Shown: positions 6,195-64,000 of the stretch, in pieces
Layout of the letters: every line of letters begins with the position of its first letter
Numbering within the stretch: the stretch's first letter is position 1
Program-made: the position numbers and the translations under genes
The notes under the pieces: generated by a model
Seen by the model: only the letters and a program-made list of their open reading frames with translations
What the model was told of the DNA's origin: nothing
Database searches by the model: none
Source of the DNA: Longimicrobiales bacterium
GTDB taxonomy: Bacteria > Gemmatimonadota > Gemmatimonadetes > Longimicrobiales > Gaopeijiaceae
Direction of reading: 5' to 3'
Assembly (NCBI GenBank): GCA_965218295.1
Contig: CBDCKN010000003.1
Span: forward strand, 32,001-96,000
DNA length: 64,000 nucleotides

Positions 6195-7100
6195 TCATGG
6201 TGCCTCCAGAACGTCTACAAGCAGGCCGGCCAGCTCCCCTGCGTATCGACCGGTCGGATCCAGATCCGGGTCGAATATGGTGACTTGCAGACCGTGGACC
6301 TCGGGAGCCGCTAGGAGTGTGGACAGCAGTTCATGGAGCTCAGCGAAGCTCAGTCCGTCCGGTTGAGGTGAGTCGACTGCGGGCATGATCGTGCTGTCGA
6401 GGACGTCCACGTCCACGTGGACCCACACACCATCGAGGGGTGCCCGGGCGAAGCGATCGAGCACTACCCTCGCCGACTCGGCCATGCCCTGCGACCGCAG
6501 TCGCTCGAGGGACGCCGAGTACATCGGTCCGCGCGCAAGCTCGAGGTATTCGGATGGGTAGCCGTCGTCCCCGTCGCGATGACCCAGGAGCGCCACATCC
6601 TCGGCACGCACGAGGGAGTCGGTCCCGTGGAGACGAGTGAGCACGTCGGGCCCGTGACCGGTCACTAAGGCGAGGTCCATTCCCGCAGCGCCACCCGTTT
6701 GGGAGGTGTTCGGCGACAGAAGATCCTGGTGACCATCCAGGAAGACGAGCCCATACCGTCCCCGCCGCCTGAGACCCAGCATCGACCCCAGCAGAATGCT
6801 GCAGTCGCCGCCCAGGACGAGTGGTGCATGGCCGGTGTACAGGGCGCCACCGACCGCCTCAGCCAGGTCGTGGGCGTAGGCGGCGACGGCCTCGGCGTTG
6901 AGCATTCCGCTCTCCGGATCTCGGTCGCCGGAGTACGGTGGAGAGGGGACGAGGACCCGATCCCTCACTCGCAGGCCCTCCAGCAGGCCCGCCTCGATCA
7001 ACGCCTCGGGGAGACGTCGCACACCCGGCTCCCGGCCGGGACTAGGCGGTCGAAGGCCCAGATTGGAGGGGGCCTCAACCAAGGATAGTGGTGGCCGCAT
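6195..7100 (-). CDS. Arginase/ureohydrolase family protein
   Basis: LGGDCS, FLDGHQD, WVHVDVDVLD, PDGLS metal-binding motifs. Confidence 0.9.
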   Translation of the reverse strand: MRPPLSLVEAPSNLGLRPPSPGREPGVRRLPEALIEAGLLEGLRVRDRVLVPSPPYSGDRDPESGMLNAEAVAAYAHDLAEAVGGALYTGHAPLVLGGDCSILLGSMLGLRRRGRYGLVFLDGHQDLLSPNTSQTGGAAGMDLALVTGHGPDVLTRLHGTDSLVRAEDVALLGHRDGDDGYPSEYLELARGPMYSASLERLRSQGMAESARVVLDRFARAPLDGVWVHVDVDVLDSTIMPAVDSPQPDGLSFAELHELLSTLLAAPEVHGLQVTIFDPDLDPTGRYAGELAGLLVDVLEAP

Positions 7101-7108
7101 GTGGAATA

Positions 7109-7759
7109 TCACTGCTCCGTGACACAGAGCCGTGCGAAGCCCTCGGGGATCGGCACCTCCAGCCGTTGTTGTGTCCAACTGCTCGGAAGCCGCCGAACCT
7201 CCAGGTGGGGCAGCTCCCGGGATCCCACCTCGAACGCGTGGTTCTTCCCGTATTGATCGTGCAGCTCGAGGCGGAGACGGAGTTCGGTAGGGTCCGGGAT
7301 CGGGCCTCTGTTCTGGAAGTCCAGCCTGAGGGAGATGCCCTGGTTGGGAATGCCGGACGCCTGGGGCGAGAGCATGATGGGGCATACACTGGCGTCCACC
7401 CACTCGTGAACGATCTCGTTGTGGTGACGTGGTTCTCCACTCGACCCGCCGTAGTCTGTGCTGGTTTCCATCCGCTCGTCGAGCCGCGTCCCGTGGACGT
7501 CGCCATCGAGCCAGCCGTTGCCGAGGTTGACCGACGCGTCCAGGCGAACGACGGTGTTCGGCTTGTCGCTCAGATTCGTGACGATGAAGTCGGCATCCGT
7601 GTGGACGTGAAGCGTGTTGAAATCGTCGTCGACCACCAGTCCATCGGGAGCGAAGCGGAAGACCTGGAGCCGCGGCAGCCGCGCCAGCTTAGTGGCGAAG
7701 AACTGGTAGAGCGAGAGGAGGGCACCGCTGACTGCGATGATGAACGTGACGATTTGCAT
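7109..7759 (-). CDS. Hypothetical protein with N-terminal membrane anchor
   Basis: RBS AGGAGG before ATG; hydrophobic N-terminus; stop lies 9 nt before the arginase start. Confidence 0.6.
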   Translation of the reverse strand: MQIVTFIIAVSGALLSLYQFFATKLARLPRLQVFRFAPDGLVVDDDFNTLHVHTDADFIVTNLSDKPNTVVRLDASVNLGNGWLDGDVHGTRLDERMETSTDYGGSSGEPRHHNEIVHEWVDASVCPIMLSPQASGIPNQGISLRLDFQNRGPIPDPTELRLRLELHDQYGKNHAFEVGSRELPHLEVRRLPSSWTQQRLEVPIPEGFARLCVTEQ

Positions 7760-7923
7760 TCGGGACCTCCTAGCCGATGTGCCGCGGAAGCGTACGTCCG
7801 TGGGCGACACAGAGCAAAGCTCGAGCGCGTGCGGGTCGCTCGAGATTCCTTGTCTTCTGGCCCGAGACACCACAGGATCTGATGTCGCAGTCGGACACTA
7901 GCCTCCCCTCATCGAGGTCCTCC

Positions 7924-8893
7924 ATGAAAATCGTCCTGAGGGTCATCGGCGTACTCCTCGTCACTCTGCTTCTGGCAGGGGCCGGCGTCTACGTGTGGGC
8001 ATCCACCACGAGTACCCGACTGCGGTCCCGGACGTTCGAAGCCCATACGGTGGACTTCCCGATGTCCTTCCCGTTGAGTGAGGAGGAGTTGGCTGAGTCA
8101 GGACTCAACGCGGAGGAGGGTGAGCAGCTCGCGATGGAGCGTGCACTCCAGCGGGGCAAGCACCTGGTCGAGGTGCGATACGCGTGTACCGAATGCCACG
8201 GACAAGACTTCGGCGGCGGCGTGATGATAGATGCTCCACTCCTCGGCCGGATCTTGGGCCCGAACCTCACGTCGGGGACGGGGAGCCGAACCGTGGGCTA
8301 CCGACCCGCCGATTGGGACCGGATCGTGCGGCACGGTCTTCTCAGGGACGGGAGGCCCGGAGCGATGCCCTCGGAGGACTTTCAGCTCATGTCGGATCAG
8401 GAGCTGTCCGACATCGTGGTCTATCTGTTGTCGCAACCGCCGGTCGACAACGAGGTCCCGCCTCCCACCTTGGGCCCCTTGGGCAAGGTGCTCATGGCCA
8501 CGGGCCAGCTGCGGCTCTCCGCCGACCTGATCGAGTCCCACGACGCCCCACACGCCGTGAACCCACCTCCTGCTGAGGTCTCGGTGGAGTTCGGTGAGCA
8601 CCTCGCGGGGATCTGCACCGGATGCCACCGTGAGAACCTCGCCGGTGGTCCCATCGCCGCGGGCGATCCGAGCTGGGCACCGGCTCGCAACCTCACGCCC
8701 CACTCCGACGGGTTGGCGGGATGGACCTACGAGCAGTTCATCGCGGCAATGCGTGACGGGATACGGCCGGACGGCACGGAGCTGCTGATGCCGATGAGCC
8801 TGATGCTCCCGTACGCGCAGGAGGACCGACGTGGAGATGGAGGCGCTATGGACCTATCTCCAGTCGGTGCCGGCGGTCGCGAGCCCGGACTAG
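7924..8893 (+). pseudogene. Membrane-anchored di-heme cytochrome c, frameshifted near 8820
   Basis: CTECH and CTGCH heme motifs, NLT motifs; expected C-terminus TDVEMEALWTYLQSVPAV lies in another frame ending TAG at 8893. Confidence 0.8.
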
Positions 8894-8952
8894 CGCTCGG
8901 CGTTCACTGTGCAACCCGCCGGGTTTCAGTGACCCCCGCCGGACGCACACGA

Positions 8953-9571
8953 TCAATCCGACTGGAAGCCCGTAACGATCAGGCGATACGCCTCGTTCTC
9001 CGCATCGTACTCGGCGCGGAATTGAGTCGGATACCGGACTTCCGCAGGAAGGTTCTCGACCGCCGGTACGTCTAGCGAGAAGCCCGCCTCCTGGAGGAGT
9101 AGCTCCCGGGTCAGCATCGGCTCGAAGAAGAGAGCCTCGCCACGGTAATACCCCACCAGCATACTGGCCCGAAGAGTTCAGTCTGCGAAAGCTCTTCCTC
9201 CAGCATCGCGTGCATTCCCATCTGGGGCACGCACAGACCGACGAGCATTCCTATCTCCGGAATTTCGATGTCGGGTAGCGTATACCCGGCCGGAACCCGC
9301 TCGGGCTTGCCCAAATCCGCACTGCCGCCTCCTGTGCGGGTGGCCAAACCATCTCCGCCTCGGCGGGCGCCGCCTCGATCGATGCGAGGGGGACCGTGGC
9401 GCCAAGCTCCACTACCGTCTCTCCCTCCATCACCGCCCACGTACACACCTCCGCACCATACATATCGGCGCACTCGCCGGACGCCAGGCGGGAGTCCGGA
9501 GTACAGGAGGTCAAAAGGACAAGCACCGCAGCAACGAGGGGGGCCGCCGTAGCGACGTGTTTCGCACTCAT
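8953..9571 (-). pseudogene. Secreted/lipoprotein hypothetical (DUF5602/TTHB210-like) in three frames with probable internal deletion
   Basis: Signal LLTSC, then VPQMGMH, then MLVGYYRGEALFFEPM and YPTQFRAEYD in successive frames. Confidence 0.6.
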
Positions 9572-9634
9572 GGATAGCCTCACTTTCCGTTGACGGAATC
9601 GAACAGTTTGAGAGGTTGCCCGCTGGAACGGCCC

Positions 9635-10426
9635 CTACGCTTGTACACCTCCACTCGAGTGCAGCGCGAACGCCGCCCCTTGGGGGTCCATGCACTGCAC
9701 GACCCGATCCCCGCCGGGCACGTCCATGGGTCCGTTGAGCACCTGGCCGCCCAGTGACTTCACGGTCTCGGCGGCAGCCTCGACGTCAGGCACCTTGGCA
9801 TACAGGAGCCAGTGTGGAGGCGCGGGGATCTCGGGAAGCAGGTTGTACATGCCCCCCAACTCATGCTCGCCGCTCCCGTACATCTGGTAGACGCCCATCT
9901 CGCCCATATCCATCGCGGTGGTCTTCTGCCATCCGAATAGGGCCGAGTAGAAGTCGAAGCCGGCCTCATAGTCGGAGGTGGCGAGCTCGTGCCACGAGAA
10001 CTCGCCGACCTGGGGCGGCCCTTCGCGCCCCGGCGAGTCGGCCTCGGCGGTGAAGACCGCGAAGACCGCTCCCTGGGGATCGCGCAGGACGGCCATGCGT
10101 CCCACGTCGGGGACGCTCATGGGCTCCATGAGGACCTGGCCGCCCAGCTCCTTGGCCCGCTCGACGGTGGCGTCCGTGTCGGGGGTCGAGACGTACGCCA
10201 GCCAGTGCGGAGGGGCGCCTGCGGCCCTGGCCTCCTCGGGAAGATCCATGATTCCTCCCACCGGGGCCTCCCCGATGGTGAACATGGTGTAGGGTTGCTC
10301 GCCGGCCTCCCAATCCTGCGTGCCCCACCCGACGACCTCCTTGTAGAACGCGATCGTGGGGCCCTTGTCCACCGTGAGCATCTCGTACCAGACGAAGCGT
10401 CCATGCGGCGACTCTGCCATTGCCAT
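9635..10426 (-). CDS. VOC/glyoxalase family protein (two-domain, Cfp30B-like)
   Basis: Duplicated domains: FVWYEM/FSWHEL, PPHWLxY, DPQGAxFA. Confidence 0.9.
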   Translation of the reverse strand: MAMAESPHGRFVWYEMLTVDKGPTIAFYKEVVGWGTQDWEAGEQPYTMFTIGEAPVGGIMDLPEEARAAGAPPHWLAYVSTPDTDATVERAKELGGQVLMEPMSVPDVGRMAVLRDPQGAVFAVFTAEADSPGREGPPQVGEFSWHELATSDYEAGFDFYSALFGWQKTTAMDMGEMGVYQMYGSGEHELGGMYNLLPEIPAPPHWLLYAKVPDVEAAAETVKSLGGQVLNGPMDVPGGDRVVQCMDPQGAAFALHSSGGVQA

Positions 10427-10708
10427 CCTCCCATCCGAAATAGGAGCCGAGGGTCAGGCCACGCTGACGCGGGCTAACCCGGAAAGGGTGTCAATAATGC
10501 CCTCGTTCGGGTCCCGTGGCCAGCGTCGAAAACTGTTTGCCTCAGGGGCTCGTCGGCTGAGCGGACTCCGCTCGCCCCCCCGTGGCGGCGGGGGTGGCGC
10601 CGGTGGCGGCCCACGGGCATCATGAGTGCCACTTCGCCAGAGTGGACGGCGCGGGCCGATCTCGCGCGGGGCCGATTGTCCCCGATCCATCTCGAACACG
10701 GAGGATCC

Positions 10709-11464
10709 ATGGAGGGCGTCGTCAGCCGAATGGACGCTCGCGTCGCGCTGGTCACCGGGGCTGCCAGGGGCATGGGTAGGGCCATCGCCCGGCGCCTCCA
10801 CGAGCTGGGCGCGTCCGTGGCGCTGAACGACCTGGATCCCAAGGCCACGAGCCGGGTGGCCGAGGAGCTGGGGGAAGATGTGCTGCCCACCCCGGCAGAC
10901 GTGACCTCGTCGGACGCCGTCCGGGAGATGGTGGCCACCACTCTGGACCGCTTCGGGCGCCTCGACATCCTCGTGAACAACGCGGGGATCCTCTTCCCAA
11001 CGCCGCTGGAGGAGATCTCGGAGGAGGAGTGGCGGCGGACCCTCGAGGTGAACCTCACAGGCGTGTTCTTTTGCACCCAGGCCGTGATCGATCCGATGAA
11101 AAGGGAGGGGTACGGGCGCATCGTGAACCTCTCCTCTACAGCCGGCAAGACGGTGAGCACTCTGGGTGGGGCCCACTACACCGCGTCCAAGCACGGCGTC
11201 CTCGGCCTCACCCGAGCCTCGGCCCTGGAGCTAGCACCCCACGGCATCACGGTGAACGCCGTCTGCCCGGGTCTCATCGACACCGAGATGGCCCACGAGA
11301 ACACGACGCCCGAGCGGTTGGAAGCCTACCGCACCGGCTTCCCGCTGGGGCGCCTGGGTCGGCCCGAGGAAGTGGCCGACCTGGTCTGCTTCCTGGCCTC
11401 CGAGGCGGCGGGCTACATCACCGGATCCGCCTACGACATCACCGGCGGAGACCTCATGGCATGA
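10709..11464 (+). CDS. SDR family NAD(P)-dependent oxidoreductase
   Basis: TGAARGMG, NNAG, YTASK, VNAVCPG. Confidence 0.93.
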   Translation: MEGVVSRMDARVALVTGAARGMGRAIARRLHELGASVALNDLDPKATSRVAEELGEDVLPTPADVTSSDAVREMVATTLDRFGRLDILVNNAGILFPTPLEEISEEEWRRTLEVNLTGVFFCTQAVIDPMKREGYGRIVNLSSTAGKTVSTLGGAHYTASKHGVLGLTRASALELAPHGITVNAVCPGLIDTEMAHENTTPERLEAYRTGFPLGRLGRPEEVADLVCFLASEAAGYITGSAYDITGGDLMA

Positions 11465-11545
11465 CGGCCCCCCGGGGGCATGGCACCCTCCCCTGGTGGG
11501 TGACCGGCACCTCGATCGCCGCGACATGGTTCGCCACCGACGCGC
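11461..11545 (+). pseudogene. Remnant of a sodium:solute symporter N-terminal region
   Basis: ATGA overlap with the SDR stop; LPWWVTGTSIAATWFATDA resembles the SSS motif LPWWxxGxSxxATxFxxD, then similarity ends. Confidence 0.55.
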
Positions 11546-11652
11546 TCAGGGGGCGGTCTGCTCCTCCTCGGAATCTTGACCGGATTCGTTACCTTGAGCG
11601 TCGCCGTGGACGGTCGCCCGGAATCGGAGAACTGACGCCGGACTGACTCCGC

Positions 11653-12339
11653 TCAGTCCCCGGCCACGCGCCTGGCTTCCTCCCGGTACTCCTGGCTGGC
11701 GAAGATGGCGACTTCGACCCGGCGATTCTCCTGTTGACCCGCCTCGGTCTCGTTGGATGTCACCGGCTCTATCTCTCCCAGACCCTGGACGTGAGTGAGC
11801 TCAGCCGGGATGCCCCGAGTCGTCAGGAAGTCGGCAGCCGCTTGAGCACGACGCTCGGACAAGCTCTGGTTGTACGCCTCGGCGCCCACCGAGTCCGTAT
11901 GTCCCGCGATCAACAGCTCGTAGTCGTCCAAGTCGTCCGAGAGAACACGAGCGAGGTCGCTGAGGTTCTCGCGGGCTTCGGGTTGAAGCTGTGACGAGTC
12001 GAAGTCGAAGAGGATGCCGGAGCCGAACGTAACCAGGATTCCTTCTCCGACCCGCTCGACCGTGGCGTTGTCGAGCTCTCGGGCCAAGGTCTCGGCCCTG
12101 TCGTCCATCCGACTTCCGATCAGGGCTCCCGCCGCACCTCCTACAACCGCTCCGATGATGGCCCCCTTCGTGGTGGAGCCCGCGGCGGCTCCAATCACGG
12201 CGCCGAGGACGCCTCCCGCCCCCGCACCGATCACGGCTCCCCTCTGGGTAGTGCTCATGCCCGAGCACCCGACGCTCGCGAGGGAGATCACCCCAGCCGT
12301 CACGAATGTTCCTGCACAGCGAAATATGTCGGTTCTCAT
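11653..12339 (-). CDS. OmpA family lipoprotein with glycine zipper
   Basis: Lipobox SVGC, GAVIGAGAGG zipper, ILFDFD, GHTDSVG, LSERRA, NRRVE. Confidence 0.93.
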   Translation of the reverse strand: MRTDIFRCAGTFVTAGVISLASVGCSGMSTTQRGAVIGAGAGGVLGAVIGAAAGSTTKGAIIGAVVGGAAGALIGSRMDDRAETLARELDNATVERVGEGILVTFGSGILFDFDSSQLQPEARENLSDLARVLSDDLDDYELLIAGHTDSVGAEAYNQSLSERRAQAAADFLTTRGIPAELTHVQGLGEIEPVTSNETEAGQQENRRVEVAIFASQEYREEARRVAGD

Positions 12340-12546
12340 AGATCGAATCCCGGTTTGGTACTCTTCCCCGTTTCGCACGACCACCGCTCCCTCCAATCTA
12401 GCCAGTGCTCACGGCAATCAGAACAACGCCGTGGGGAGTCTTCGGTCGACGCTCCGATCCTGCACGTCTATATTGATGCCGCCGCTTCCGCCACGAGGGT
12501 CCCGGTGACCATCCACCCTACACATTGCGTGAGGTTGGGCATACCC

Positions 12547-12618
12547 GTGCAGAGAATCCTGGTGACAGGAGCCGGCGGGCAGATCGGCTCCGAGCTCGTC
12601 CCCGCACGGCAGCCCTGA
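12547..12618 (+). pseudogene. Remnant of NAD-dependent epimerase-type (SDR) L-threonine 3-dehydrogenase
   Basis: VQRILVTGAGGQIGSELVPA followed directly by RQP*, immediately upstream of kbl. Confidence 0.7.
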
Positions 12619-12637
12619 ACCCAGGAGATAGACGAAG

Positions 12638-13864
12638 ATGCCTCTCGATCGTATAGCCGGTGTGCTGGATGCCCACGTGGCGGGCCTCGAGGAGGCCGGA
12701 ACCACGAAGGGCGCAGAGACCGTGGTCACGGGAGTACGAAGGGCCGAGGGAGATCGGGGCCCCCGATTCCTGCTGGAAGGTGAAGGGGACAAGGAGTTCA
12801 TGCGCATGAACTCCAATTCCTACCTGGGTCTGGGCCTCCACCCCGACGTCATCCGGGCCGGGGAGGCCGGATCTGCCGAGTTCGGGGCTGGCCCGGGAGC
12901 GGTTCGCTTCATAAGCGGATCCTACTCGGCGCACGTCGATCTCGAGCGGAAGCTGGCCGAGTTCCACGCCCGGGAGTCGGCCATGATCTTCTCGTCGGCC
13001 TACGCGAGCATCGTCTCGACGATCTCGCCACTGGTCACCTCCGAGACGGTCCTCATCAGCGACGCCCTCAATCACAACTGCATCATCATTGCCACGCGGC
13101 TGACCCGGCCCACCGGGAAGGTCGTCTACGACCACAATGACGTCGCGGGCCTGGAGAAGGCGCTGGAGGAGTGGGCGGGCAAGGCCAAGCGGGCCCTCAT
13201 CGTCACGGACGGCATCTTCAGCATGAGGGGAGATCACGCTCCCCTGGACGAGATCATGGAGGTCGCCGCCCGTCACGATCACGCCTACGAGGAAAACGCC
13301 GTCGTGCTGGTGGACGACTCCCACGGAGTGGGTTCGTTCGGAAGAACCGGGCGTGGAGTCGAGGAGTACACCGGCTCCCCGCCGGCGGACATCCTGCTGG
13401 GCACCCTGGGGAAGGCTTTTGGTGTAAACGGCGGATACGTCACGGCTCCCGAGTCGGTCATCGGCTTCCTCCGCGAGAGCTCACAGATGTACATCTACTC
13501 CAACCCGATCACCGTCGGAGAGGCTCGGGCGGCACTCAAGTCGCTGGAGATCGTGGACAGCCCCGACGGCCTGGCCCTGCTGGAGAGGCTCCGGGCCCTG
13601 ACCACGCGCTTCGAGGAGGGGTTGGCCCGCATCGGTGTGGAAACCATCCCCGGCGGGCATCCGGTCGTCCCGCTCATGATCCGCGATACTCAGAGGACGC
13701 GGGCCCTCGTGGACTACCTGTACGAGAACGGAGTGCTCGTCACGGGGCTGGCCTACCCGGTGGTGCCCCAGGGTGACGAGGAGATCCGTACCCAGATCAA
13801 CGCGGATCATACGGAAGCCGACATCGACCAGGTTCTCGGACTGCTGGAAGCGTACGATAGATGA
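12638..13864 (+). CDS. kbl: 2-amino-3-ketobutyrate CoA ligase (glycine C-acetyltransferase)
   Basis: NSYLGL, GAVRFISG, SDALNHNCII, TDGIFSM, DDSHG, GTLGKA (PLP lysine). Confidence 0.85.
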   Translation: MPLDRIAGVLDAHVAGLEEAGTTKGAETVVTGVRRAEGDRGPRFLLEGEGDKEFMRMNSNSYLGLGLHPDVIRAGEAGSAEFGAGPGAVRFISGSYSAHVDLERKLAEFHARESAMIFSSAYASIVSTISPLVTSETVLISDALNHNCIIIATRLTRPTGKVVYDHNDVAGLEKALEEWAGKAKRALIVTDGIFSMRGDHAPLDEIMEVAARHDHAYEENAVVLVDDSHGVGSFGRTGRGVEEYTGSPPADILLGTLGKAFGVNGGYVTAPESVIGFLRESSQMYIYSNPITVGEARAALKSLEIVDSPDGLALLERLRALTTRFEEGLARIGVETIPGGHPVVPLMIRDTQRTRALVDYLYENGVLVTGLAYPVVPQGDEEIRTQINADHTEADIDQVLGLLEAYDR

Positions 13865-40961: not shown

Positions 40962-41332
40962 CCCCTACTCTGATGTACGCACCGACGACCGTCGCGAGAC
41001 CACCCCGGACACTTTCCGTCAGATGAATCCTCGAAGATAAAATCGCCACGCCGTGATCCCAAGACTGGTGAGGTCGAAGACGGGCATGCCCGTGGGGGAG
41101 GTCGGGTTTGACCGCCCTGCACCGTCCACGGCGGGTGACACCCGGTGTCCCGCTTATCGGTCATACGAACGACCCGTCGAGTCAACAAACACGCGGTATT
41201 ACAGGGATTCGGTCATCGGCATGCATCTTGCCCGTAGAAGCGTAGTCGAGCCAAGCTCGAAACGCATTGCCCTGGTCCGCGGGATGGCCCGGAGGTAGTG
41301 TCAATCGTCGGGTTATCGCCTGGAGGTGCAAC

Positions 41333-56825: not shown

Positions 56826-56942
56826 CCCAGCGGGAGGGGCGGGAGGAGCTGGGGTCTGAAGCTTTCAGTGGCGCCCCGACCGCGAGTGACCATGCTCCAT
56901 ACACATTTACCCCACGAAAGCCTTTGTCGTGGATGTGTTGGA
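56826..56942. repeat. Decayed direct-repeat copy of 63630-63792 (3' end of the hyi-like gene plus flank)
   Basis: Shared blocks GGGGCGGGAGGAGCTGGGGTCTGAAGCTTTCAG, GCGCCCCGACCGCGAGT, CCATGCTCCATAC, CCCCACGAAAGCCTTTGTCGTGGATGTGTTGGA; about 44 bp missing internally. Confidence 0.9.
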
Positions 56943-57159
56943 GTCCGCTACGGCGGCCAAATCGTGTAGCGGAGCGACGCCTCACGGGGATTCGCAGCTG
57001 AAGCCGAAGGAATCGTCCAAGTCCTCAGGCAGGACGAGCGTTGGCAATCCGCGTCCCGGGCCGATGGAATCCCGTCGGGTTCTCGAAACCGTCGACATTG
57101 CCCGCCTCGACCCTGTCACAGCCACGTTGAACCACGAGGTCCCTGCGCCCCTGACCTCC

Positions 57160-57510
57160 CTAGCTCACTGGCGTGACCGCCGCCATATCCCGATCCCCGG
57201 TTCGGATTCGGTGGACCTGATCCACCGGACACACGAAGATCTTCCCGTCTCCAACCTCGTCCGTGCGCGCAGAACGCATGATCGCCTCCACGACAGTCTC
57301 GGTGAACTCGTCCGATACGCCGATGTCCAGCAGGACTTTCTCCTGCAGCTCCATCATGACCGTCGTTCCCCGGTAGGTCGCCACCGGAGTGGTCTCACCT
57401 CCGTGACCCTGGACCCGGGACACCGTGATTCCCCGCACATCCGCCTGGAATAGCGCCTTCATCACGTCGTTCAGCTTTTCCGGGCGAATGATGGCCTTGA
57501 TCAGCTTCAT
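57160..57510 (-). CDS. glnK: P-II family nitrogen regulatory protein
   Basis: KAIIRPEKL, YRG, VGDGKIFV, RIRTG; adjacent to amt. Confidence 0.93.
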   Translation of the reverse strand: MKLIKAIIRPEKLNDVMKALFQADVRGITVSRVQGHGGETTPVATYRGTTVMMELQEKVLLDIGVSDEFTETVVEAIMRSARTDEVGDGKIFVCPVDQVHRIRTGDRDMAAVTPVS

Positions 57511-57534
57511 CTGGGTTTCCTCTCCGTGTGGGGT

Positions 57535-58956
57535 TCAGACAGTGTCCGTGGGGTACGCAGAAGCCGTGGAGCCCGCCGGTGTCGTCCCGGGCGAGGACTC
57601 CGCGCCCGACCCGCCGTTCCTCTCCTCGTCCAGGAGGAGGACGGCCCCGCCGCTCCTTGCGTACGCTTCCTCTCCGTGGTTCAGGAGGTCCATGCCGCGG
57701 GCTTCCTCTCTCTCCGAAGGCCGAAGCGGGCTGACGAGTCCGATCACCTTCAGGATGATGAAGGTCATGGCCCCGCAGTAGACGGCGACGGCGAGAACGG
57801 CGATCGCCTGTATGCCGACCTGGCCGGGATTGCCATAAAAGAGCCCGTCGGCCACGCCGTTTAACGCGGCGCTGGCAAAGACCCCGGTGAGGATCGCGCC
57901 GCTCATGCCACCTATCCCGTGCGCCGCGAACACGTCGAGGGAGTCATCCAGGCGGGTGCGCGCCCGCCATTGAAGGACCGCATAGCTGGGAACGGCCGCG
58001 ATGGCGCCCAGCAGCAGCGCATATACCGGAGAGATGAAGCCCGACGCCGGCGTGATCGCCACCAATCCGACAACGATTGCGGTCGCTACGCCCACCGCGG
58101 TGGCCTTCCCCGTACGGAAGTGATCCAGCAGCGCCCAGACGACGAGCGCCGCGGCGGGGGCCAGAAAAGTATTCACGAAGGCCAGCGCCGCGATGCCGTC
58201 CGAGGCAAGCGCGCTCCCACCATTGAACCCGAACCACCCGAACCAGAGGAGCGCCGCGCCGAGGAGCACAAATGGAACGTTGTGAGGCAGCAGGGCGGTT
58301 CGTGCGTACTCATGTCGGCTTCCCAACACGAGAGCAGCCACGAGCGCGGCAACCCCCGCGTTCACATGCACGACCGTTCCGCCCGCGAAGTCCAGCGCGC
58401 CCAGCCCGGCCAACCATCCGCCACCCCAGACCCAGTGTGTTACGGGGGCGTAGACCACGAGGCCCCAGATCGCGATGAAGGCCACGTAGGGCACGAAGCG
58501 CATACGACCGATCAGAGCACCAGAGATGAGCGCCGCGGTGATAATGGCGAAGGTTGCCTGGAACGCCATGAAGAGTATGTGGGGGATCGTCCCGTTGGGC
58601 TCGAGGCCCACTCCGCGCAGCCCCGCCATCGAGAAGTCACCCACGAGGGCGGTCCCGCTCCCGAACGCGAGCGAGTACGCCAGAAGGGCCCAGATCACAG
58701 CTGACACGCCGAGCGCGACGAAGCTCATCATCATCGTGTTCAGGGCGTTCCTGGAGTTCACGAGGCCGCCGTAGAAAAAGGCGAGCCCCGGGGTCATGAG
58801 GAGAACCAGCGCCGTCGAGATCAGCATCCAACTGGTGTCGGCCCCCGAGATCGCGCCCTCCGCCGCCTCCTGGGCCGCAACCGGGGCGGGCGCTCCCACG
58901 GCGTACAGCAGCGGAAGGACGAGAAGAACGAGTAGTAATTTACGTGAGAGCTGCAT
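57535..58956 (-). CDS. amtB: Ammonium transporter
   Basis: LMTPGLAFFYGG, DFAGGTVVH, WFGWFGFNGGS, GLVAITP, DDSLDVFAAHG, HGEEAY. Confidence 0.96.
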   Translation of the reverse strand: MQLSRKLLLVLLVLPLLYAVGAPAPVAAQEAAEGAISGADTSWMLISTALVLLMTPGLAFFYGGLVNSRNALNTMMMSFVALGVSAVIWALLAYSLAFGSGTALVGDFSMAGLRGVGLEPNGTIPHILFMAFQATFAIITAALISGALIGRMRFVPYVAFIAIWGLVVYAPVTHWVWGGGWLAGLGALDFAGGTVVHVNAGVAALVAALVLGSRHEYARTALLPHNVPFVLLGAALLWFGWFGFNGGSALASDGIAALAFVNTFLAPAAALVVWALLDHFRTGKATAVGVATAIVVGLVAITPASGFISPVYALLLGAIAAVPSYAVLQWRARTRLDDSLDVFAAHGIGGMSGAILTGVFASAALNGVADGLFYGNPGQVGIQAIAVLAVAVYCGAMTFIILKVIGLVSPLRPSEREEARGMDLLNHGEEAYARSGGAVLLLDEERNGGSGAESSPGTTPAGSTASAYPTDTV

Positions 58957-59026
58957 GGGTGGTCTTCCTCCAGTCGGTCCCCAGGGCAACTGCATGCGCC
59001 AAGACGCGCACATGGAACCGCCATTG

Positions 59027-59041
59027 GCAAGGCGTGTGCCA
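59027..59041 (-). promoter_or_regulatory. Sigma54 (-24/-12) promoter of amtB-glnK
   Basis: Minus strand TGGCAC-ACGCC-TTGC. Confidence 0.85.
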
Positions 59042-59130
59042 TGAAACTCAAAACTGGAGAAAACCCTTCATTTAAAAGGGTAATTCCCAATTTTAGGGAC
59101 CTTCTGAGGAGCGTTCTAGGGGCGGAGACT

Positions 59131-59175
59131 CCTACGCCGCGGTAGGACCAGAAAACGAACCTACAAGAATGTAGG
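59131..59175. promoter_or_regulatory. Tandem palindromic upstream activator sites for the amtB promoter
   Basis: CCTACG-CCGC-GGTAGG (59131-59146) and CCTACA-AGAA-TGTAGG (59160-59175). Confidence 0.7.
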
Positions 59176-59191
59176 CACAAGTCCGGAGGGA

Positions 59192-60709
59192 TCAAGTCAG
59201 ACCGTATTTCTTGACTCGAAGGCCCATGATCCGCTCGGTAAGGCCCAGCTGCCGGCCGGCGGCCGCACGGTTGCCCTTGTTCACTTTGAGGGCGTCGATG
59301 ATCAGCTCTTTTTCCAGCACATCCAGCTGGACCTTGAGCGGTCCGGACCGCCCATCGTCGACCTTGGCCATCTGAAGGCTGGGCGGGAGCAACCGAGCGT
59401 GGATGACCTTTCCGTCGGCGAGCAGCACCGCCCGCTCAATGGCGTTCTCCAGCTCTCTGACATTTCCCGGCCAATGATAGGCCATCAATAGATCGATGGC
59501 AGGCGTGGACAGCCTTACGATGGACCGCCCATGCCTCCGCCGGTACTTCTCGATGAAATGATCCGCCAAGAGGATGATGTCGGTACGGCGATCCCGCAGC
59601 GGCGGCACATGAATCGGGAACACGTTGAGGCGATAGTAAAGATCGGCCCGGAACCGTCCCTCTTCCATGTCCCGCTCGAGGGGACGATTTGTCGCTGCGA
59701 CAAAGCGGACATCGGTCCTCAAAACCTTATTGCTGCCGACCCGCTCGAACTCCCGCTCCTGAAGGACCCGGAGAAGCCGGAGTTGGATCGCACCCGTGAG
59801 CTCACCGATTTCATCGAGGAAGATGGTGCCTCCCGAAGCGCGTTCGAAGCGCCCCTCTCTCTGCTGCACCGCGCCACTGAACGCGCCTTTCTCATGGCCG
59901 AAGAGCTCGCTCTCGATGAGGCTCTCGGGCAGCGCAGCGCAGTTGACCTGGACGAAAGGGCCCTCCGACCGTCGACTCCCGTAGTGAACCGCGTGGGCGA
60001 TGAGTTCCTTTCCCGTCCCACTTTCACCCCGGATCAGCACCGTGGCATCGCTTTGGGCCACCTGGCCGATCATCTCGTACACCGGCTCCATTTCGTGCGA
60101 ATTGCCCACGATGTTGGACGGCCGGTAACGGTCGGCAAGCTCCCTCCGCAGGCGCTGGTTCTCCTCCATCAGCGCCTTCTCTTCTTCGGCGAACTGGCCG
60201 AGGCGTACGACATGGGCGATGAGAGAGGCAAGGATGGAGAGGATGCGGATGTCCTCGTCGAAAGAGGCGTCCTGCCCGTACCGCCGCTCGGCGCTTAGGG
60301 CCCCGATCGTCTCGTTCCCCAGCCGAACCGGTACACAGACGAAAGCCAACTCTCTCTCCGGGCGATCCTTCAGAGGACGGGCTCGGCCCAGGAAAAGCGG
60401 CTCGCTGGCGATGGACGGCACGACAACGGGCTCGCCCGTCTTGATGACGCGCCCCGTGATCCCCTCGCCCAAACGGTATCTCCCAGGCTCCCGCTGATCG
60501 GCGGAGAGGCCGATCGCCTCGTGAACCAAGATCTCGGATGTCCGGCGGTTCAGGACGGTGAGCGTCGCGCACTCCACATCCATGTGACGTGAGAGGGCCT
60601 CGAGAATCGGCTTCATGGACGTGCTCACGTCCGAAGCCTCGTCGAGGAGTGTGCTGGCCTCGTGAAGAAGCGACAGCGAACTCGATTGTCCAATGGAATC
60701 AGCCAACAT
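59192..60709 (-). CDS. NifA-like sigma54-dependent activator (GAF, AAA+, HTH)
   Basis: GAF segment [11 protein letters not shown]...[58 protein letters not shown], Fis-type HTH. Confidence 0.92.
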
Positions 60710-60807
60710 CGACCCTGTCCTACATGCTCAAGCATGGCCCGCAGAGCCCGCCGCCGCCAAGCCAACGACAGGCGCCTCAGAGGGCCGGGTGGGTGTGAAG
60801 CCACCAA

Positions 60808-60823
60808 GCTACATAAATGTAGG
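60808..60823. promoter_or_regulatory. Palindromic site upstream of the activator gene (possible autoregulation)
   Basis: GCTACA-TAAA-TGTAGG, same motif as 59160 and 61834. Confidence 0.6.
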
Positions 60824-60880
60824 GGCCGGCGCACGCCGTGTGTGCGAGTGCATCGGGTCCAAGGGGCAAAAATCTCCCCC

Positions 60881-60928
60881 AAAAGAAGCGGGGCTGCTCC
60901 GATCCAGTAACGGATCGGAGCAGCCCCG
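60881..60928 (-). terminator. Intrinsic terminator after the TorF porin gene
   Basis: 17-bp perfect stem (60889-60905 / 60912-60928), 6-nt loop, followed on minus strand by CTTCTTTT. Confidence 0.8.
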
Positions 60929-60951
60929 GCCAACGCTAAAGCAGTCGAGCG

Positions 60952-61608
60952 TCAGTCGATGTTGATGTCGAACGTGTGGCTGATGCCGAACACGAGCGTG
61001 TGGTCGTCGTCCGCGGTGCCGAGGATTGTATCAGTGCTGTAGATCCACGCCGCCGATAGGTCCAGATCCGCTACCGATACGGTGTACCCACCCTCGAAGT
61101 ACTCGCCGTCGAGGGCGTCACCGAACGTGCCGAAGGTGGCGTAGAGCCCCCATTGCTCCACCGTGGCGGCCAAGAACAAGTAGTTCTCGCTGTCCGGGTC
61201 GGCTGGGACGGCCTGGTCGAGACTATGCCGGCCGTAGGAGAACTCTGCGGAAAGGGCTCCGTACCCCACGTTCAGGTTTCCCTCCAGGTACGTGTTGTCG
61301 AAATCGCCCGTGTAGAAATACCCCGTGCCACCTACGCTGACGCTGAAGTCCTCCACCTCCGTACCGACACCGGCGTACAGGTCGACCTCGTTACCGTCAC
61401 CGACATCCGCCGCCCAAGTGCCCAGATACACTTTACCGACGGCCACGTCCAAACCTGCACTCGCGGAGGATGCCTTCTGGGGAATCCCGCGGTAGAAATA
61501 CTCAGAGAGCCAGCCTAGGTTCGCCGACACCTCCGCCTCCTGGGCTACGCCGACCAGAGGCGTAACCACAACCGCGACCAACGCCACCGCACCTATGCTC
61601 ATTTTCAT
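60952..61608 (-). CDS. TorF family putative porin
   Basis: Signal peptide, SANLGWLSEYFYRGIPQ, YLGTWA, EVDLYAG, LVFGISHTF. Confidence 0.85.
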   Translation of the reverse strand: MKMSIGAVALVAVVVTPLVGVAQEAEVSANLGWLSEYFYRGIPQKASSASAGLDVAVGKVYLGTWAADVGDGNEVDLYAGVGTEVEDFSVSVGGTGYFYTGDFDNTYLEGNLNVGYGALSAEFSYGRHSLDQAVPADPDSENYLFLAATVEQWGLYATFGTFGDALDGEYFEGGYTVSVADLDLSAAWIYSTDTILGTADDDHTLVFGISHTFDINID

Positions 61609-61697
61609 CCGTTAATCTCCGTAAAGACGTGATGGAGCGAACGCGAGCGGCGACATCCACCATTCGGACGGCTCCGGAACCATCGGGCCCGACACAG

Positions 61698-61713
61698 TGC
61701 GAGTCTCGTGCCA
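61698..61713 (-). promoter_or_regulatory. Sigma54 (-24/-12) promoter of the porin gene
   Basis: Minus strand TGGCAC-GAGAC-TCGCA (GG-N10-GC). Confidence 0.75.
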
Positions 61714-61804
61714 CAAATCACGAACCGGAGCCCAAGACACGCTATCGCGTTGGCGGACAACGACCTGGCTAGAGCGGGCATTGGCAGGAGGGGGACGTTT
61801 CCAT

Positions 61805-61849
61805 CATACGAGACCGTGGGACGATCGTAATTTCCTACTAAAATGTAGG
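61805..61849. promoter_or_regulatory. Upstream activator sites for the porin promoter
   Basis: CCTACT-AAAA-TGTAGG (61834-61849) and degenerate CATACG-AGAC-CGTGGG (61805-61820), 29 bp apart as at amtB. Confidence 0.65.
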
Positions 61850-62168
61850 ATCGAAAGGACGCTCGCGCTTGGCGAGCGGGCCCGGATCCGGTCGCGGCGT
61901 GAGCGAGCGCCGGCCTTCATCGTCCACCTACGCGCATGAGAGATCGGGGTTGTGCCGGCCTTTCCGTTGCCTGGGATCTCCTCCTGAGTGAGATTGGTCC
62001 GTCCGTCATGTCCGCCTTTCGGCGACGGAGCTTGTCTCCAGGCCATAGCTCCGTGTAGCCGGAGTCTACGAGGCGCGGACCGCCGATAGCGCCATTTACG
62101 GGGGCTCCCGGTGGCGCGATACCGCTCGGCTACGATCCCCGGAACTGCGAGGCACAATCCACAGGCGT

Positions 62169-63620
62169 ATGGATCAAGTGCGATCACACGAAGAGCGGGT
62201 GCGTTGGCCCCCCTGCCGAGGTCGGACGACCCGACTCACGGTGTCACCTGCTCTCCTTGTTTGCCTCTTGGTCCTTCCGGGTCCCGGCCATGCTCAGACT
62301 CCGCACGGGGGCGGCACTACACCGAACCCCGCCCTGGCGGACAGTGTGGGCCACGCCACGCTCCGGACGTGGGAAGAAGAGCTTTGGCTCACCCTGCTCG
62401 ACCGTAAGGACTCCTTCGGTGGGCAATTCAGCGACAGAGGAACGCTGAAGCGATTCACCGACCTGATCGACAGGAAGTACTTTCTCGATCTGCTGGGCTT
62501 TCGCTTCAGCCCGATGGAGAGCTACCGCTGGTACCAACGTGACGAAGGCTTCCGCTGGAGGGGTGGGAGTGCCACCTCCCTGGATCTGGCCGCATTCGCG
62601 GAGCTCAAGGCCAAGGTCCCGCTGGGAGGGCCCTGGAACATGGGGGTCCGAATCGATCAGATCTCCGGACCCCGCTTCGACGGGAGCGCCGTGCGGATCC
62701 GCTTCTCGCGCGACCTCGAAGAGACGGCGGTGGCATTCGCCGGATTGCACCTCGATCCACACAAGAACGGGGGGGACATATGGGTGGGCGGACAGTGGAA
62801 CCCCGGCCCCGCGAAGCTCACCGCCCAGTTCACCGTACTCGACTTTCTCAACAACCTGCTCTTCGTGAGGCGTGGCACCGCCGTTTACGCTCGGGGAGAC
62901 ACAACGGTCGTCTACGAACGCCAGCCCACCGCGTTACGCACCTCCGGGGAGGTGGCGCTGAGCGACGAGGTACGCCTCGAGGCCTACGGGAGCGTCGTTC
63001 TTCCGTCGAGCGTCGTGGTCCACCAGGGTGATGATCGTGCGTTGGGCTTCACGCTCGACGAGTCGGTCTGGTATGCGGGCACGATGCTGGAGTGGACCCC
63101 GAACCCGCGCGTCCTCGTCGCCGGTTCGGTCACCAATGTGAGGGCTCGTTCCAAACGGACACCCAACTCCCTCGCCGCGTCCGTCGAGGGTTACGAGTTG
63201 GTCGAGCGCAGCACCGAGGCCGAGGCCTTCCTCGCCTTTCGTCCGTCCGAGCGATGGACGATCAGTGGCACCGCCGTGCGAATGTGGCTGCCCGAGCGCC
63301 GTGCCGTGATGGATGACCCGTCGAGAGACGTCGACTACCTGCTCAACGCATGGCTGACCAAGCTCGACCTCGCGTTCACCGCGAGGGGCGGATTCCTGAG
63401 TCGCGTGAGCCTTCTGACCAGCACCACGAGGGTTCCGCGGGGGTTGGGCAGGATGGACGTGAGGGGGATTCTGGACGACGAGTTCTACCGGTTTCTCCTG
63501 AACCTCGGATGGAGTTTCGAGAACGCCAGGATCGTCGTCGGTGGCGCGTACGATTACGACCCCCACCCCGCCGGTTGGACCTGGGGCACGGCCAATGGCC
63601 GGGTCATCCTTAGGTGGTGA
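62169..63620 (+). CDS. Hypothetical outer-membrane beta-barrel-like protein (start uncertain)
   Basis: Signal-like segment ending GHA-Q, beta-strand periodicity, C-terminal aromatic (VILRW). Confidence 0.65.
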   Translation: MDQVRSHEERVRWPPCRGRTTRLTVSPALLVCLLVLPGPGHAQTPHGGGTTPNPALADSVGHATLRTWEEELWLTLLDRKDSFGGQFSDRGTLKRFTDLIDRKYFLDLLGFRFSPMESYRWYQRDEGFRWRGGSATSLDLAAFAELKAKVPLGGPWNMGVRIDQISGPRFDGSAVRIRFSRDLEETAVAFAGLHLDPHKNGGDIWVGGQWNPGPAKLTAQFTVLDFLNNLLFVRRGTAVYARGDTTVVYERQPTALRTSGEVALSDEVRLEAYGSVVLPSSVVVHQGDDRALGFTLDESVWYAGTMLEWTPNPRVLVAGSVTNVRARSKRTPNSLAASVEGYELVERSTEAEAFLAFRPSERWTISGTAVRMWLPERRAVMDDPSRDVDYLLNAWLTKLDLAFTARGGFLSRVSLLTSTTRVPRGLGRMDVRGILDDEFYRFLLNLGWSFENARIVVGGAYDYDPHPAGWTWGTANGRVILRW

Positions 63621-63670
63621 CTCGGCAGTCCCAGCGGGCGGGGGGCGGGAGGAGCTGGGGTCTGAAGCTT

Positions 63671-64000
63671 TCAGCGGGGATCCACACTCCGATACGCGTC
63701 GATTACCGCCCGCTCCCCTTCGCGCCCCGACCGCGAGTTCCCATGCTCCATACCCAGCACCCCACGAAAGCCTTTGTCGTGGATGTGTTGGAACACGTTC
63801 TTGAAATTGATCTCGCCGGTGGTCGGCTCTCGGCGTCCCGGGTTGTCGCCTATTTGGAAGTACGCGATCTCGTCCCATGCCCGGTCGATGTTGGGAATGA
63901 GATTGCCTTCGTGGATCTGTTGATGGTACAGGTCGTCGAGGATTTTGCACGACGGACTGTTCACCGCGCGACAGATTTCAAACGCTTGGGCCATCTTGGT
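63671..64000 (-). CDS. Hydroxypyruvate isomerase family TIM-barrel protein (C-terminal part only)
   Basis: LYHQQIHEGNLI, QIGDNPGRREPTTGEINF, GMEHG. Confidence 0.88.
   Translation of the reverse strand, partial: TKMAQAFEICRAVNSPSCKILDDLYHQQIHEGNLIPNIDRAWDEIAYFQIGDNPGRREPTTGEINFKNVFQHIHDKGFRGVLGMEHGNSRSGREGERAVIDAYRSVDPR

Follow-up and report, generated by a model that had tools for sequence, protein, structure and literature searches.

Paired palindromes before two sigma-54 promoters point to a one-component regulator of ammonium uptake in Gemmatimonadota

Results

A putative porin, a sigma-54 activator and amtB-glnK are clustered, with two predicted promoters of the same design

We analysed a stretch of 64,000 nucleotides (hereafter the window; positions 32,001 to 96,000 of contig CBDCKN010000003.1, assembly GCA_965218295.1) from a member of the Longimicrobiales (Gemmatimonadota; Gaopeijiaceae). 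Our subject is the cassette near its end, in which four genes on the minus strand encode a putative porin, a sigma-54 activator of GAF-AAA-HTH (helix-turn-helix) build, the ammonium transporter AmtB and a P-II protein (Table 1). An initial annotation, made from the sequence alone, had proposed that these genes form a self-contained ammonium-scavenging regulon with the palindromic operator CCTACA-N4-TGTAGG. The clustering, both -24/-12 boxes and the five palindromes that it described were all borne out. The palindromes of each promoter are 29 bp apart and start at nearly the same distances before the box, 134 and 105 bp for amtB and 136 and 107 bp for the porin gene. Transcription starts are predicted near 59015 (amtB) and 61687 (porin), and rpoN is present in the genome. 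The spacer of the amtB promoter is AT-rich (56% A+T in a genome of 65% G+C), and the hairpin at 60889-60928 stands between the porin and activator genes. AmtB retains both His motifs and its C-terminal tail motif. The P-II gene is the only one found in the genome, and its product has its best PDB match in 1ufl (E 1e-50).

Table 1. Features of the cassette, in coordinates of the window
Feature	Position	Strand	Remarks
P-II (GlnK) gene	57160..57510	-	PF00543; Thermus-type T-loop, without Tyr51
amtB ammonium transporter gene	57535..58956	-	TIGR00836 425 bits, above cut-off
Sigma-54 -24/-12 box of amtB-glnK	59027..59041	-	perfect TGGCAC-N5-TTGC; kept in relatives
Proximal candidate enhancer palindrome, amtB promoter	59131..59146	.	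2 mismatches; matrix score 13.0; conserved offset 103-107 bp
Distal candidate enhancer palindrome, amtB promoter	59160..59175	.	0 mismatches; matrix score 24.1, genome's best
GAF-AAA+-HTH sigma-54 activator gene	59192..60709	-	505 aa; AnfA/VnfA-related; without N-terminal cysteines
Single palindrome about 100 bp before activator start	60808..60823	.	without sigma-54 box; 1 mismatch; score 21.3
Intrinsic-terminator-like hairpin 3' of porin gene	60889..60928	-	18 pairs, T tail
TorF/Gcw_chp-family putative porin gene	60952..61608	-	PF09694; TIGR02001 46.8 bits vs cut-off 47.15; Atlas 0.98
Sigma-54 -24/-12 box of porin gene	61699..61713	-	TGGCAC-N5-TCGC, 1 mismatch; kept in relatives
Proximal degenerate candidate enhancer palindrome, porin promoter	61805..61820	.	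4 mismatches; score 11.7; offset conserved in relatives
Distal candidate enhancer palindrome, porin promoter	61834..61849	.	1 mismatch; score 21.7

Contigs from public RNA runs (four runs from two studies, mostly of related strains) overlap parts of all four genes; they show neither starts, strand nor level and were not used as evidence. The amtB box is overlapped at 59024-59039 by an opposite-strand GG-N10-GC pattern, probably because the box is itself nearly palindromic.

Position and pairing, not number, set the candidate operator sites apart

The palindromes were scored against CCTACA-N4-TGTAGG and with a matrix derived from 62 sites in related genomes, the window's own genome being left out. 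The operator of the initial annotation survived in part: the palindromes are real, and its sixth base is not fixed. Only 44% of the matrix sites have an A at this position, and the motif is therefore better written CCTAC-N6-GTAGG. With up to two mismatches the window holds five matches against 0.90 +- 0.88 expected, a set that leaves out the site at 61805 and takes in an unrelated match at 40964. All three matches with at most one mismatch in the whole genome fall within the cassette. The three highest matrix scores of the genome are those of 59160, 61834 and 60808, the next site reaching 16.1. Site-plus-box pairs occur only twice in the 3.57 Mb genome, at the amtB and porin promoters. The matrix scan for such pairs found no further regulon members in this genome, which is 90.7% complete; neither glnA (C1:52944), which the initial annotation had named as a place to look, nor a second Amt/Rh-family gene (C3:285515) has one. 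The weakest of the candidate sites is that at 61805, whose score of 11.7 compares with 143 genome positions that reach 10. What support it has comes from conservation at a 29-30 bp offset in relatives, in which its counterpart is often closer to the consensus. We also tried the bare motif count as a marker of carriers and rejected it, because in 80 genomes it separated carriers neither from controls nor from the reversed pattern. Position and pairing are the only informative features of the motif.

NifA binds TGT-N10-ACA and NtrC binds TGCAC-N7-GTGCA, and amtB-glnK in Proteobacteria is usually under NtrC. Of these, TGT-N10-ACA was not found in any of the three intergenic regions, and neither sigma-54 promoter has an NtrC-like site before it; one match to the latter with two mismatches occurs at 60830. 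The contrast with proteobacterial NtrC control drawn in the initial annotation turned out to be beside the point, because the close homologues of the activator carry Gemmatimonadota names.

The activator resembles AnfA and VnfA without their cysteines

The activator matches PF00158 (E 5e-72) and PF02954, with the Walker motifs of an AAA+ domain and a C-terminal HTH, and has a GAF domain in place of a receiver domain. The best match of the GAF domain among solved structures is Aquifex Nlh1 (PDB 4g3w/4g3k; E 2e-24), followed by NifA. An AlphaFold model (predicted local distance difference test score, pLDDT, 76; predicted template modelling score, pTM, 0.44) and a fold search confirmed the activator fold and no more, and a deep profile search added nothing specific. 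With 506.3 bits the protein stays under the cut-off of TIGR01817 (NifA; 528.85), a model that separates poorly, given that a glnA-linked relative scores 554. None of five genomes tested had a protein above the cut-off of the NtrC model TIGR01818, though among 14 control genomes only one did. The only cysteines of the activator are C47, C125 and C257, and the N-terminal cysteines that are conserved in all AnfA/VnfA-type rows of our alignment are missing. Its recognition helix, TERIMGLRV, is similar to the TRRxLGLRM of AnfA/VnfA.

Phylogenetic trees were built from 56, 53 and 26 rows picked from a larger set against redundancy; three short or broken rows, G286 (frameshifted) and L058 were left out. 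The activator and the AnfA/VnfA-type proteins share a branch apart from canonical NifA, with support of 97 (quick tree), 99 (FastTree) and 88/88 (careful tree). Within it the window's activator falls in a separate, fully supported sub-branch, and canonical NifA is set apart by a 100/100 branch. We infer the AnfA/VnfA identity of the tree rows, including the Azotobacter protein, from cysteines, helix and grouping. A topology with every nitrogenase activator (NifA plus AnfA/VnfA) in one clade was not rejected by an approximately unbiased (AU) test (p-AU 0.142). That AnfA/VnfA descend from an assimilation regulator is therefore put forward as a suggestion only. Having neither the cysteines nor nitrogenase targets, the activator appears to work like AnfA at the DNA and yet is no AnfA, and its sequence features make it neither NifA nor NtrC. 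As assembled, a further two genes for sigma-54 activators (C3:445965-447463 and C13:262480-263229) seem to be frameshifted or truncated.

The promoter pattern accompanies the activator among relatives

An activator homologue (E 1e-130 or better) was found in 54 of the 401 genomes of the order that were searched. The close type, at 75-92% identity, is present in 38 of them, in three together with a paralogue of about 50% identity, and the other 16 have the paralogue alone. Amt and P-II genes follow the activator in 25 of the 27 close loci that were fetched, the other two being without P-II, while a porin gene precedes it in 12/27 and glnA lies further downstream in 6/27. The motif proved to be conserved upstream of these orthologous operons: palindrome pairs occur in 28/28 close loci (44 pairs, with gaps of 28 bp in 10, 29 bp in 30 and 30 bp in 4), a count that is partly circular because the matrix was trained on 27 of the 28. 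From the distal site to the box the distance is 132-136 or 146-147 bp in nearly all loci, two classes that differ by one helical turn; in one locus it is 60 bp. Across seven promoters the palindrome arms are conserved at 0.93, compared with 0.53 for spacers and flanks. A strict site-gap-box pattern was found in 24 of the 38 genomes with the close activator and in 2 of 37 without an activator match, with a reversed control of 5/75. Upstream of the amt loci of activator-less relatives there was neither site nor box (0/8). The 12 regions around distal amt loci in activator-bearing relatives gave no strong upstream site, and one of them has a box. The lone site before the activator gene recurs in 13/26 close relatives and in three spirochaetes.

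That the regulon is self-contained, as initially proposed, appears to hold for the window's genome by the matrix scan and fails for the relative G353, whose distant amt-glnK operon has the same type of promoter. The regulon is thus not always one cluster. No nitrogenase subunit (PF00148) was found in any of the 54 activator-bearing genomes and no member of the NifH family (PF00142) in that of the window, and GlnD was found in none of the five genomes tested.

Several loci show how these operons vary. In relatives (L118, L119, L151 and L004, in G355, G338, G325 and G011) two different amt-glnK operons stand in tandem, each with its own promoter copy. Operons and promoter copies have been lost in differing combinations; the G325 promoter has its pair 60 bp from the box, and G338 keeps an orphan promoter copy on a separate contig. 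We had considered an origin of the arrangement in the window's genome by recombination between two amt leaders and dropped it, since the relatives show two amt operons with promoters of their own that were differentially lost. The second type of activator (L138-L149 and L005; about 50% identical, helix xRIxGYK, often GAFTDA) would drive amt-glnK-porin clusters of the same bacterial family, which carry related ACA-N4-TGT sites. Both types occur together in G255, G268 and G364; in the last two the gene of the close-type activator is itself preceded by a sigma-54 promoter with paired sites and has no adjoining amt.

Sites and activator also co-occur in other phyla

A scan of a genome collection gave at least 597 matches, from which 80 loci were kept and 35 scored for sites. 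The 80 loci include full-length homologues of 45-56% identity beside glnA, gltB, glnD, amt and P-II genes, as well as two that adjoin genes for nitrogenase. In 4 of the 35 loci, three from spirochaetes and one from an acidobacterium, the activator gene is flanked by significant sites on either side. The three spirochaete homologues are 50-56% identical to the window's activator and share its recognition helix, ERxMGLR. Their loci have a site before the activator and, downstream, a pair before the sigma-54 box of glnA or amt-glnK. Of the comparative evidence for the activator as the likely reader of the sites, this co-occurrence in other phyla is the least circular. One homologue from the scan, in L014 (Acidobacteriales, 6836-13359), lies with a complete anfHDGK set and is an AnfA-type activator with the N-terminal cysteines; together with its relatives, the Azotobacter protein included, it makes up the AnfA/VnfA-type group of the trees.

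Discussion

Relation to known regulators

The initial annotation had regarded the motif as a different one. This does not stand: its core, TAC-N6-GTA, matched exactly by four of the five sites, is the published consensus of AnfA, and the sites of VnfA and those predicted for Desulfovibrio DVUA0143 are similar. The AnfA consensus was established on the anfH promoter of Rhodobacter by mutating its two sites and by binding experiments; both sites are needed for full activity (PMC7294313). VnfA binds paired GT(T/A)C-N6-GTAC sequences (PMC9542535). With AnfA of Rhodobacter capsulatus and AnfA and VnfA of Azotobacter vinelandii the window's system would share the GAF-AAA-HTH build, two dyads per sigma-54 promoter and the TAC-N6-GTA core. 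It differs from them in its targets (porin, amtB and glnK genes rather than anf or vnf), in the missing N-terminal cysteines, in the CC/GG flanks and fixed 29-bp spacing of its sites, and in that no nitrogenase was found in 54/54 carriers.

The regulatory logic has precedents too. EbpA of Leptospira interrogans, a GAF activator, is reported to bind upstream of amtB, and both amtB transcription and nitrogen-limited growth depend on it (reviewed in PMC12655853). As described there it is, like the window's activator, a one-component GAF activator of sigma-54 tied to amtB; it differs in having two GAF domains and in being termed FhlA-like, and the likeness is one of description only. Nlh1 of Aquifex aeolicus is a NifA-like protein speculated to regulate nitrogen assimilation rather than fixation, whose GAF domain represses assembly until a ligand binds (reviewed in PMC9866876); its similarity to the window's activator covers the GAF part only. 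In Desulfovibrio vulgaris, the single-component DVU1949 is predicted to recognise CA-W4-TG palindromes, and its targets include an ammonium-transporter operon and other nitrogen genes (PMC4641369). It resembles the window's activator, by description only, in being single-component with an ammonium transporter as predicted target, and differs in sites that are AT-rich at the flanks. For DVUA0143, Kazakov and colleagues predicted CTACA-N4-TGTAG-like sites such as CTACA-AAAA-TGTAG (PMC4641369), which nearly equal the window's motif, whereas the predicted targets are nif genes. We take the pDV plasmid protein L086 (46% identical; grouping with canonical NifA in the tree) to be DVUA0143. The HTH of this plasmid activator (L086:1477-3024) equals the row labelled DVU1949 in the DNA-binding-domain table of PMC4641369, which suggests that row labels are shifted in supplement file 2 of that paper. 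Canonical NifA and NtrC likewise activate sigma-54 from upstream sites, and NtrC has the same targets; the window's activator differs in having no receiver domain.

We found no published report of this regulon in Gemmatimonadota, in a literature search made mostly without subscription journals. The motif core and the logic of a one-component GAF activator of amtB are already in print, and these precedents limit the surprise; what is new is the combination, the lineage and a possible link to the origin of AnfA/VnfA.

A proposed mechanism and the case against it

Sequence and comparison together document the predicted genes, boxes and sites, their fixed geometry and their co-occurrence with the activator. 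We consider it probable that the activator binds the paired palindromes and switches on both predicted sigma-54 promoters, that before the porin gene and that before amtB-glnK. In keeping with the initial annotation, the comparative evidence makes the one-component GAF activator, in a lineage whose 54 carriers yielded no nitrogenase, the likely reader of the sites. Under nitrogen shortage it would turn on both predicted promoters, with two dimers likely binding each CCTAC-N6-GTAGG pair. By analogy with known enhancer-binding proteins, the two dimers would nucleate the active AAA+ ring and looping of the DNA would bring it to the sigma-54 holoenzyme; until the signal arrives, the activator would be held off by its GAF domain; the AT-rich amtB spacer may aid looping. 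The lone site at 60808, behind the porin terminator, likely serves negative autoregulation that limits synthesis of the activator.

A number of observations weigh against this proposal. The bare genome-wide count of sites with at most one mismatch is not above its control (three, against four for the reversed pattern). The strict promoter pattern is absent from 14 of the 38 close genomes, namely 13 of genus g6, which have deviating boxes, and G339, the palindrome pairs being nonetheless plain in the fetched g6 loci; moreover, related genomes are not independent samples. Among six distant homologues with an ERxMGxR-like helix, three (L015, L017 and L018) have no strong site beside the gene. Paralogues of about 50% identity with a different helix use similar sites, so the link from helix to motif is loose. 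A sigma-70 promoter overlapping the site at 60808 was looked for and not found. The sigma-54-contact loop of the activator reads GAFSGA rather than GAFTGA, the form in many close relatives, a variant that is listed as active (PMC4641369). The genome encodes seven other sigma-54 activators, several of them with receiver domains. Finally, PII inhibits AnfA via its GAF domain in Rhodopseudomonas palustris and acts on NifA in Azospirillum and Rhodospirillum (PMC12093980), which keeps P-II a live rival as the source of the signal.

Candidate signals and alternative explanations

The signal is the weakest link of the mechanism. If the regulon has been read correctly, we favour direct sensing of 2-oxoglutarate by the GAF domain, at slightly less than even odds, with P-II then mainly gating AmtB; a signal through binding of P-II is possible and somewhat less likely, and another ligand such as glutamine unlikely. 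The GAF domain of Azotobacter NifA is known to bind 2-oxoglutarate (PMC12998190). The activator is accompanied by two types of P-II about 40% identical to each other (both without Tyr51), or by none, a pattern easier to reconcile with a metabolite signal than with a contact dedicated to P-II. Classical control by uridylylation is unlikely, given the absence of GlnD and of Tyr51.

Relay of the signal by P-II is a variant of the same regulon, and taken as a whole we regard it as doubtful. Unmodified P-II would bind the GAF domain under nitrogen excess, or P-II loaded with ATP and 2-oxoglutarate would activate; either way a feedback loop would be closed, glnK being itself a target. The precedents in Rhodopseudomonas, Azospirillum and Rhodospirillum and the co-encoded P-II of most close loci speak for such a relay. 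Yet the same activator stands beside two differing P-II types, two loci manage without P-II, GlnD and Tyr51 are missing as noted, and gating of AmtB would by itself account for a P-II gene next to amt.

It is improbable that the sites are read by another regulator, either a repressor or one of the seven further activators, with the adjacent protein a bystander or co-factor. For Desulfovibrio, control of amt by two activators has been predicted (PMC4641369); the pattern here, however, tracks the activator both within the family and across phyla, and a copy of the site lies before the activator's own gene. Slightly less probable still is a cue unrelated to nitrogen (redox, metal or a specific amine), with porin and Amt importing some other substrate. 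The porin has no assigned substrate, and AnfA and VnfA respond to metal or redox (PMC9542535), but they do so via the cysteines that the window's activator lacks, and the neighbours in other phyla (glnA, gltB, glnD, amt and P-II) and the intact motifs of AmtB point to nitrogen. Least credible is that the palindromes are RNA hairpins or chance matches: one of them (59176-59159) is listed as terminator-like 16 bp past the activator stop and the bare count is no higher than its control, but the pairing at a fixed 28-30 bp, the phased distance to the box, arms that conserve sequence rather than pairing, and the same pair before the porin gene, where the upstream frame points away, are hard to explain in this way. 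The distal amtB site could serve as both terminator and enhancer.

A wider reading, to which we give less than even odds as a whole, takes the activator as one member of a family of GAF activators without the cysteines that extends across phyla, to Gemmatimonadota, spirochaetes and further lineages outside the Proteobacteria. Such proteins would replace NtrB/NtrC, sense nitrogen directly without GlnD, read pairs of TAC-N6-GTA, and represent the stock from which AnfA and VnfA arose independently of NifA. Should the tree hold, this descent would explain why the AnfA/VnfA site differs from that of NifA. For a largely uncultured group the results provide a precise predicted promoter grammar for nitrogen scavenging, namely two 16-bp dyads 29 bp apart and phased to a sigma-54 box. 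They also bear on annotation: close homologues are labelled 'Nif-specific regulatory protein' in metagenomes, a label that is no sign of nitrogen fixation.

Surroundings of the cassette

The cassette and one open reading frame (ORF) are bracketed by a partial direct repeat (56826-56942 and 63630-63792; pieces of 34-72 bp, 91-100% identical), which repeats the 3' end and downstream region of a sugar-isomerase-like gene whose end is at 63671. Another genus has a match to the cassette, at 77-89% and with sharp boundaries (57155-61852). No copy turned up in the two genomes of the window's own genus, whose matches to the flanks (95-97%) sit at unlinked places. The cassette may possibly have been gained or rearranged recently. 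Directly past its end lies a 60-bp element (61871-61929) of which the genome has two other copies at 98% (C13:547749 and C12:80050) and G001 and G355 have further ones; it may be a small repeat or mobile element. The ORF at 62169-63620 on the plus strand (483 aa) has no Pfam or NCBIfam match, looks secreted and is 95% identical in DNA to a locus of G001.

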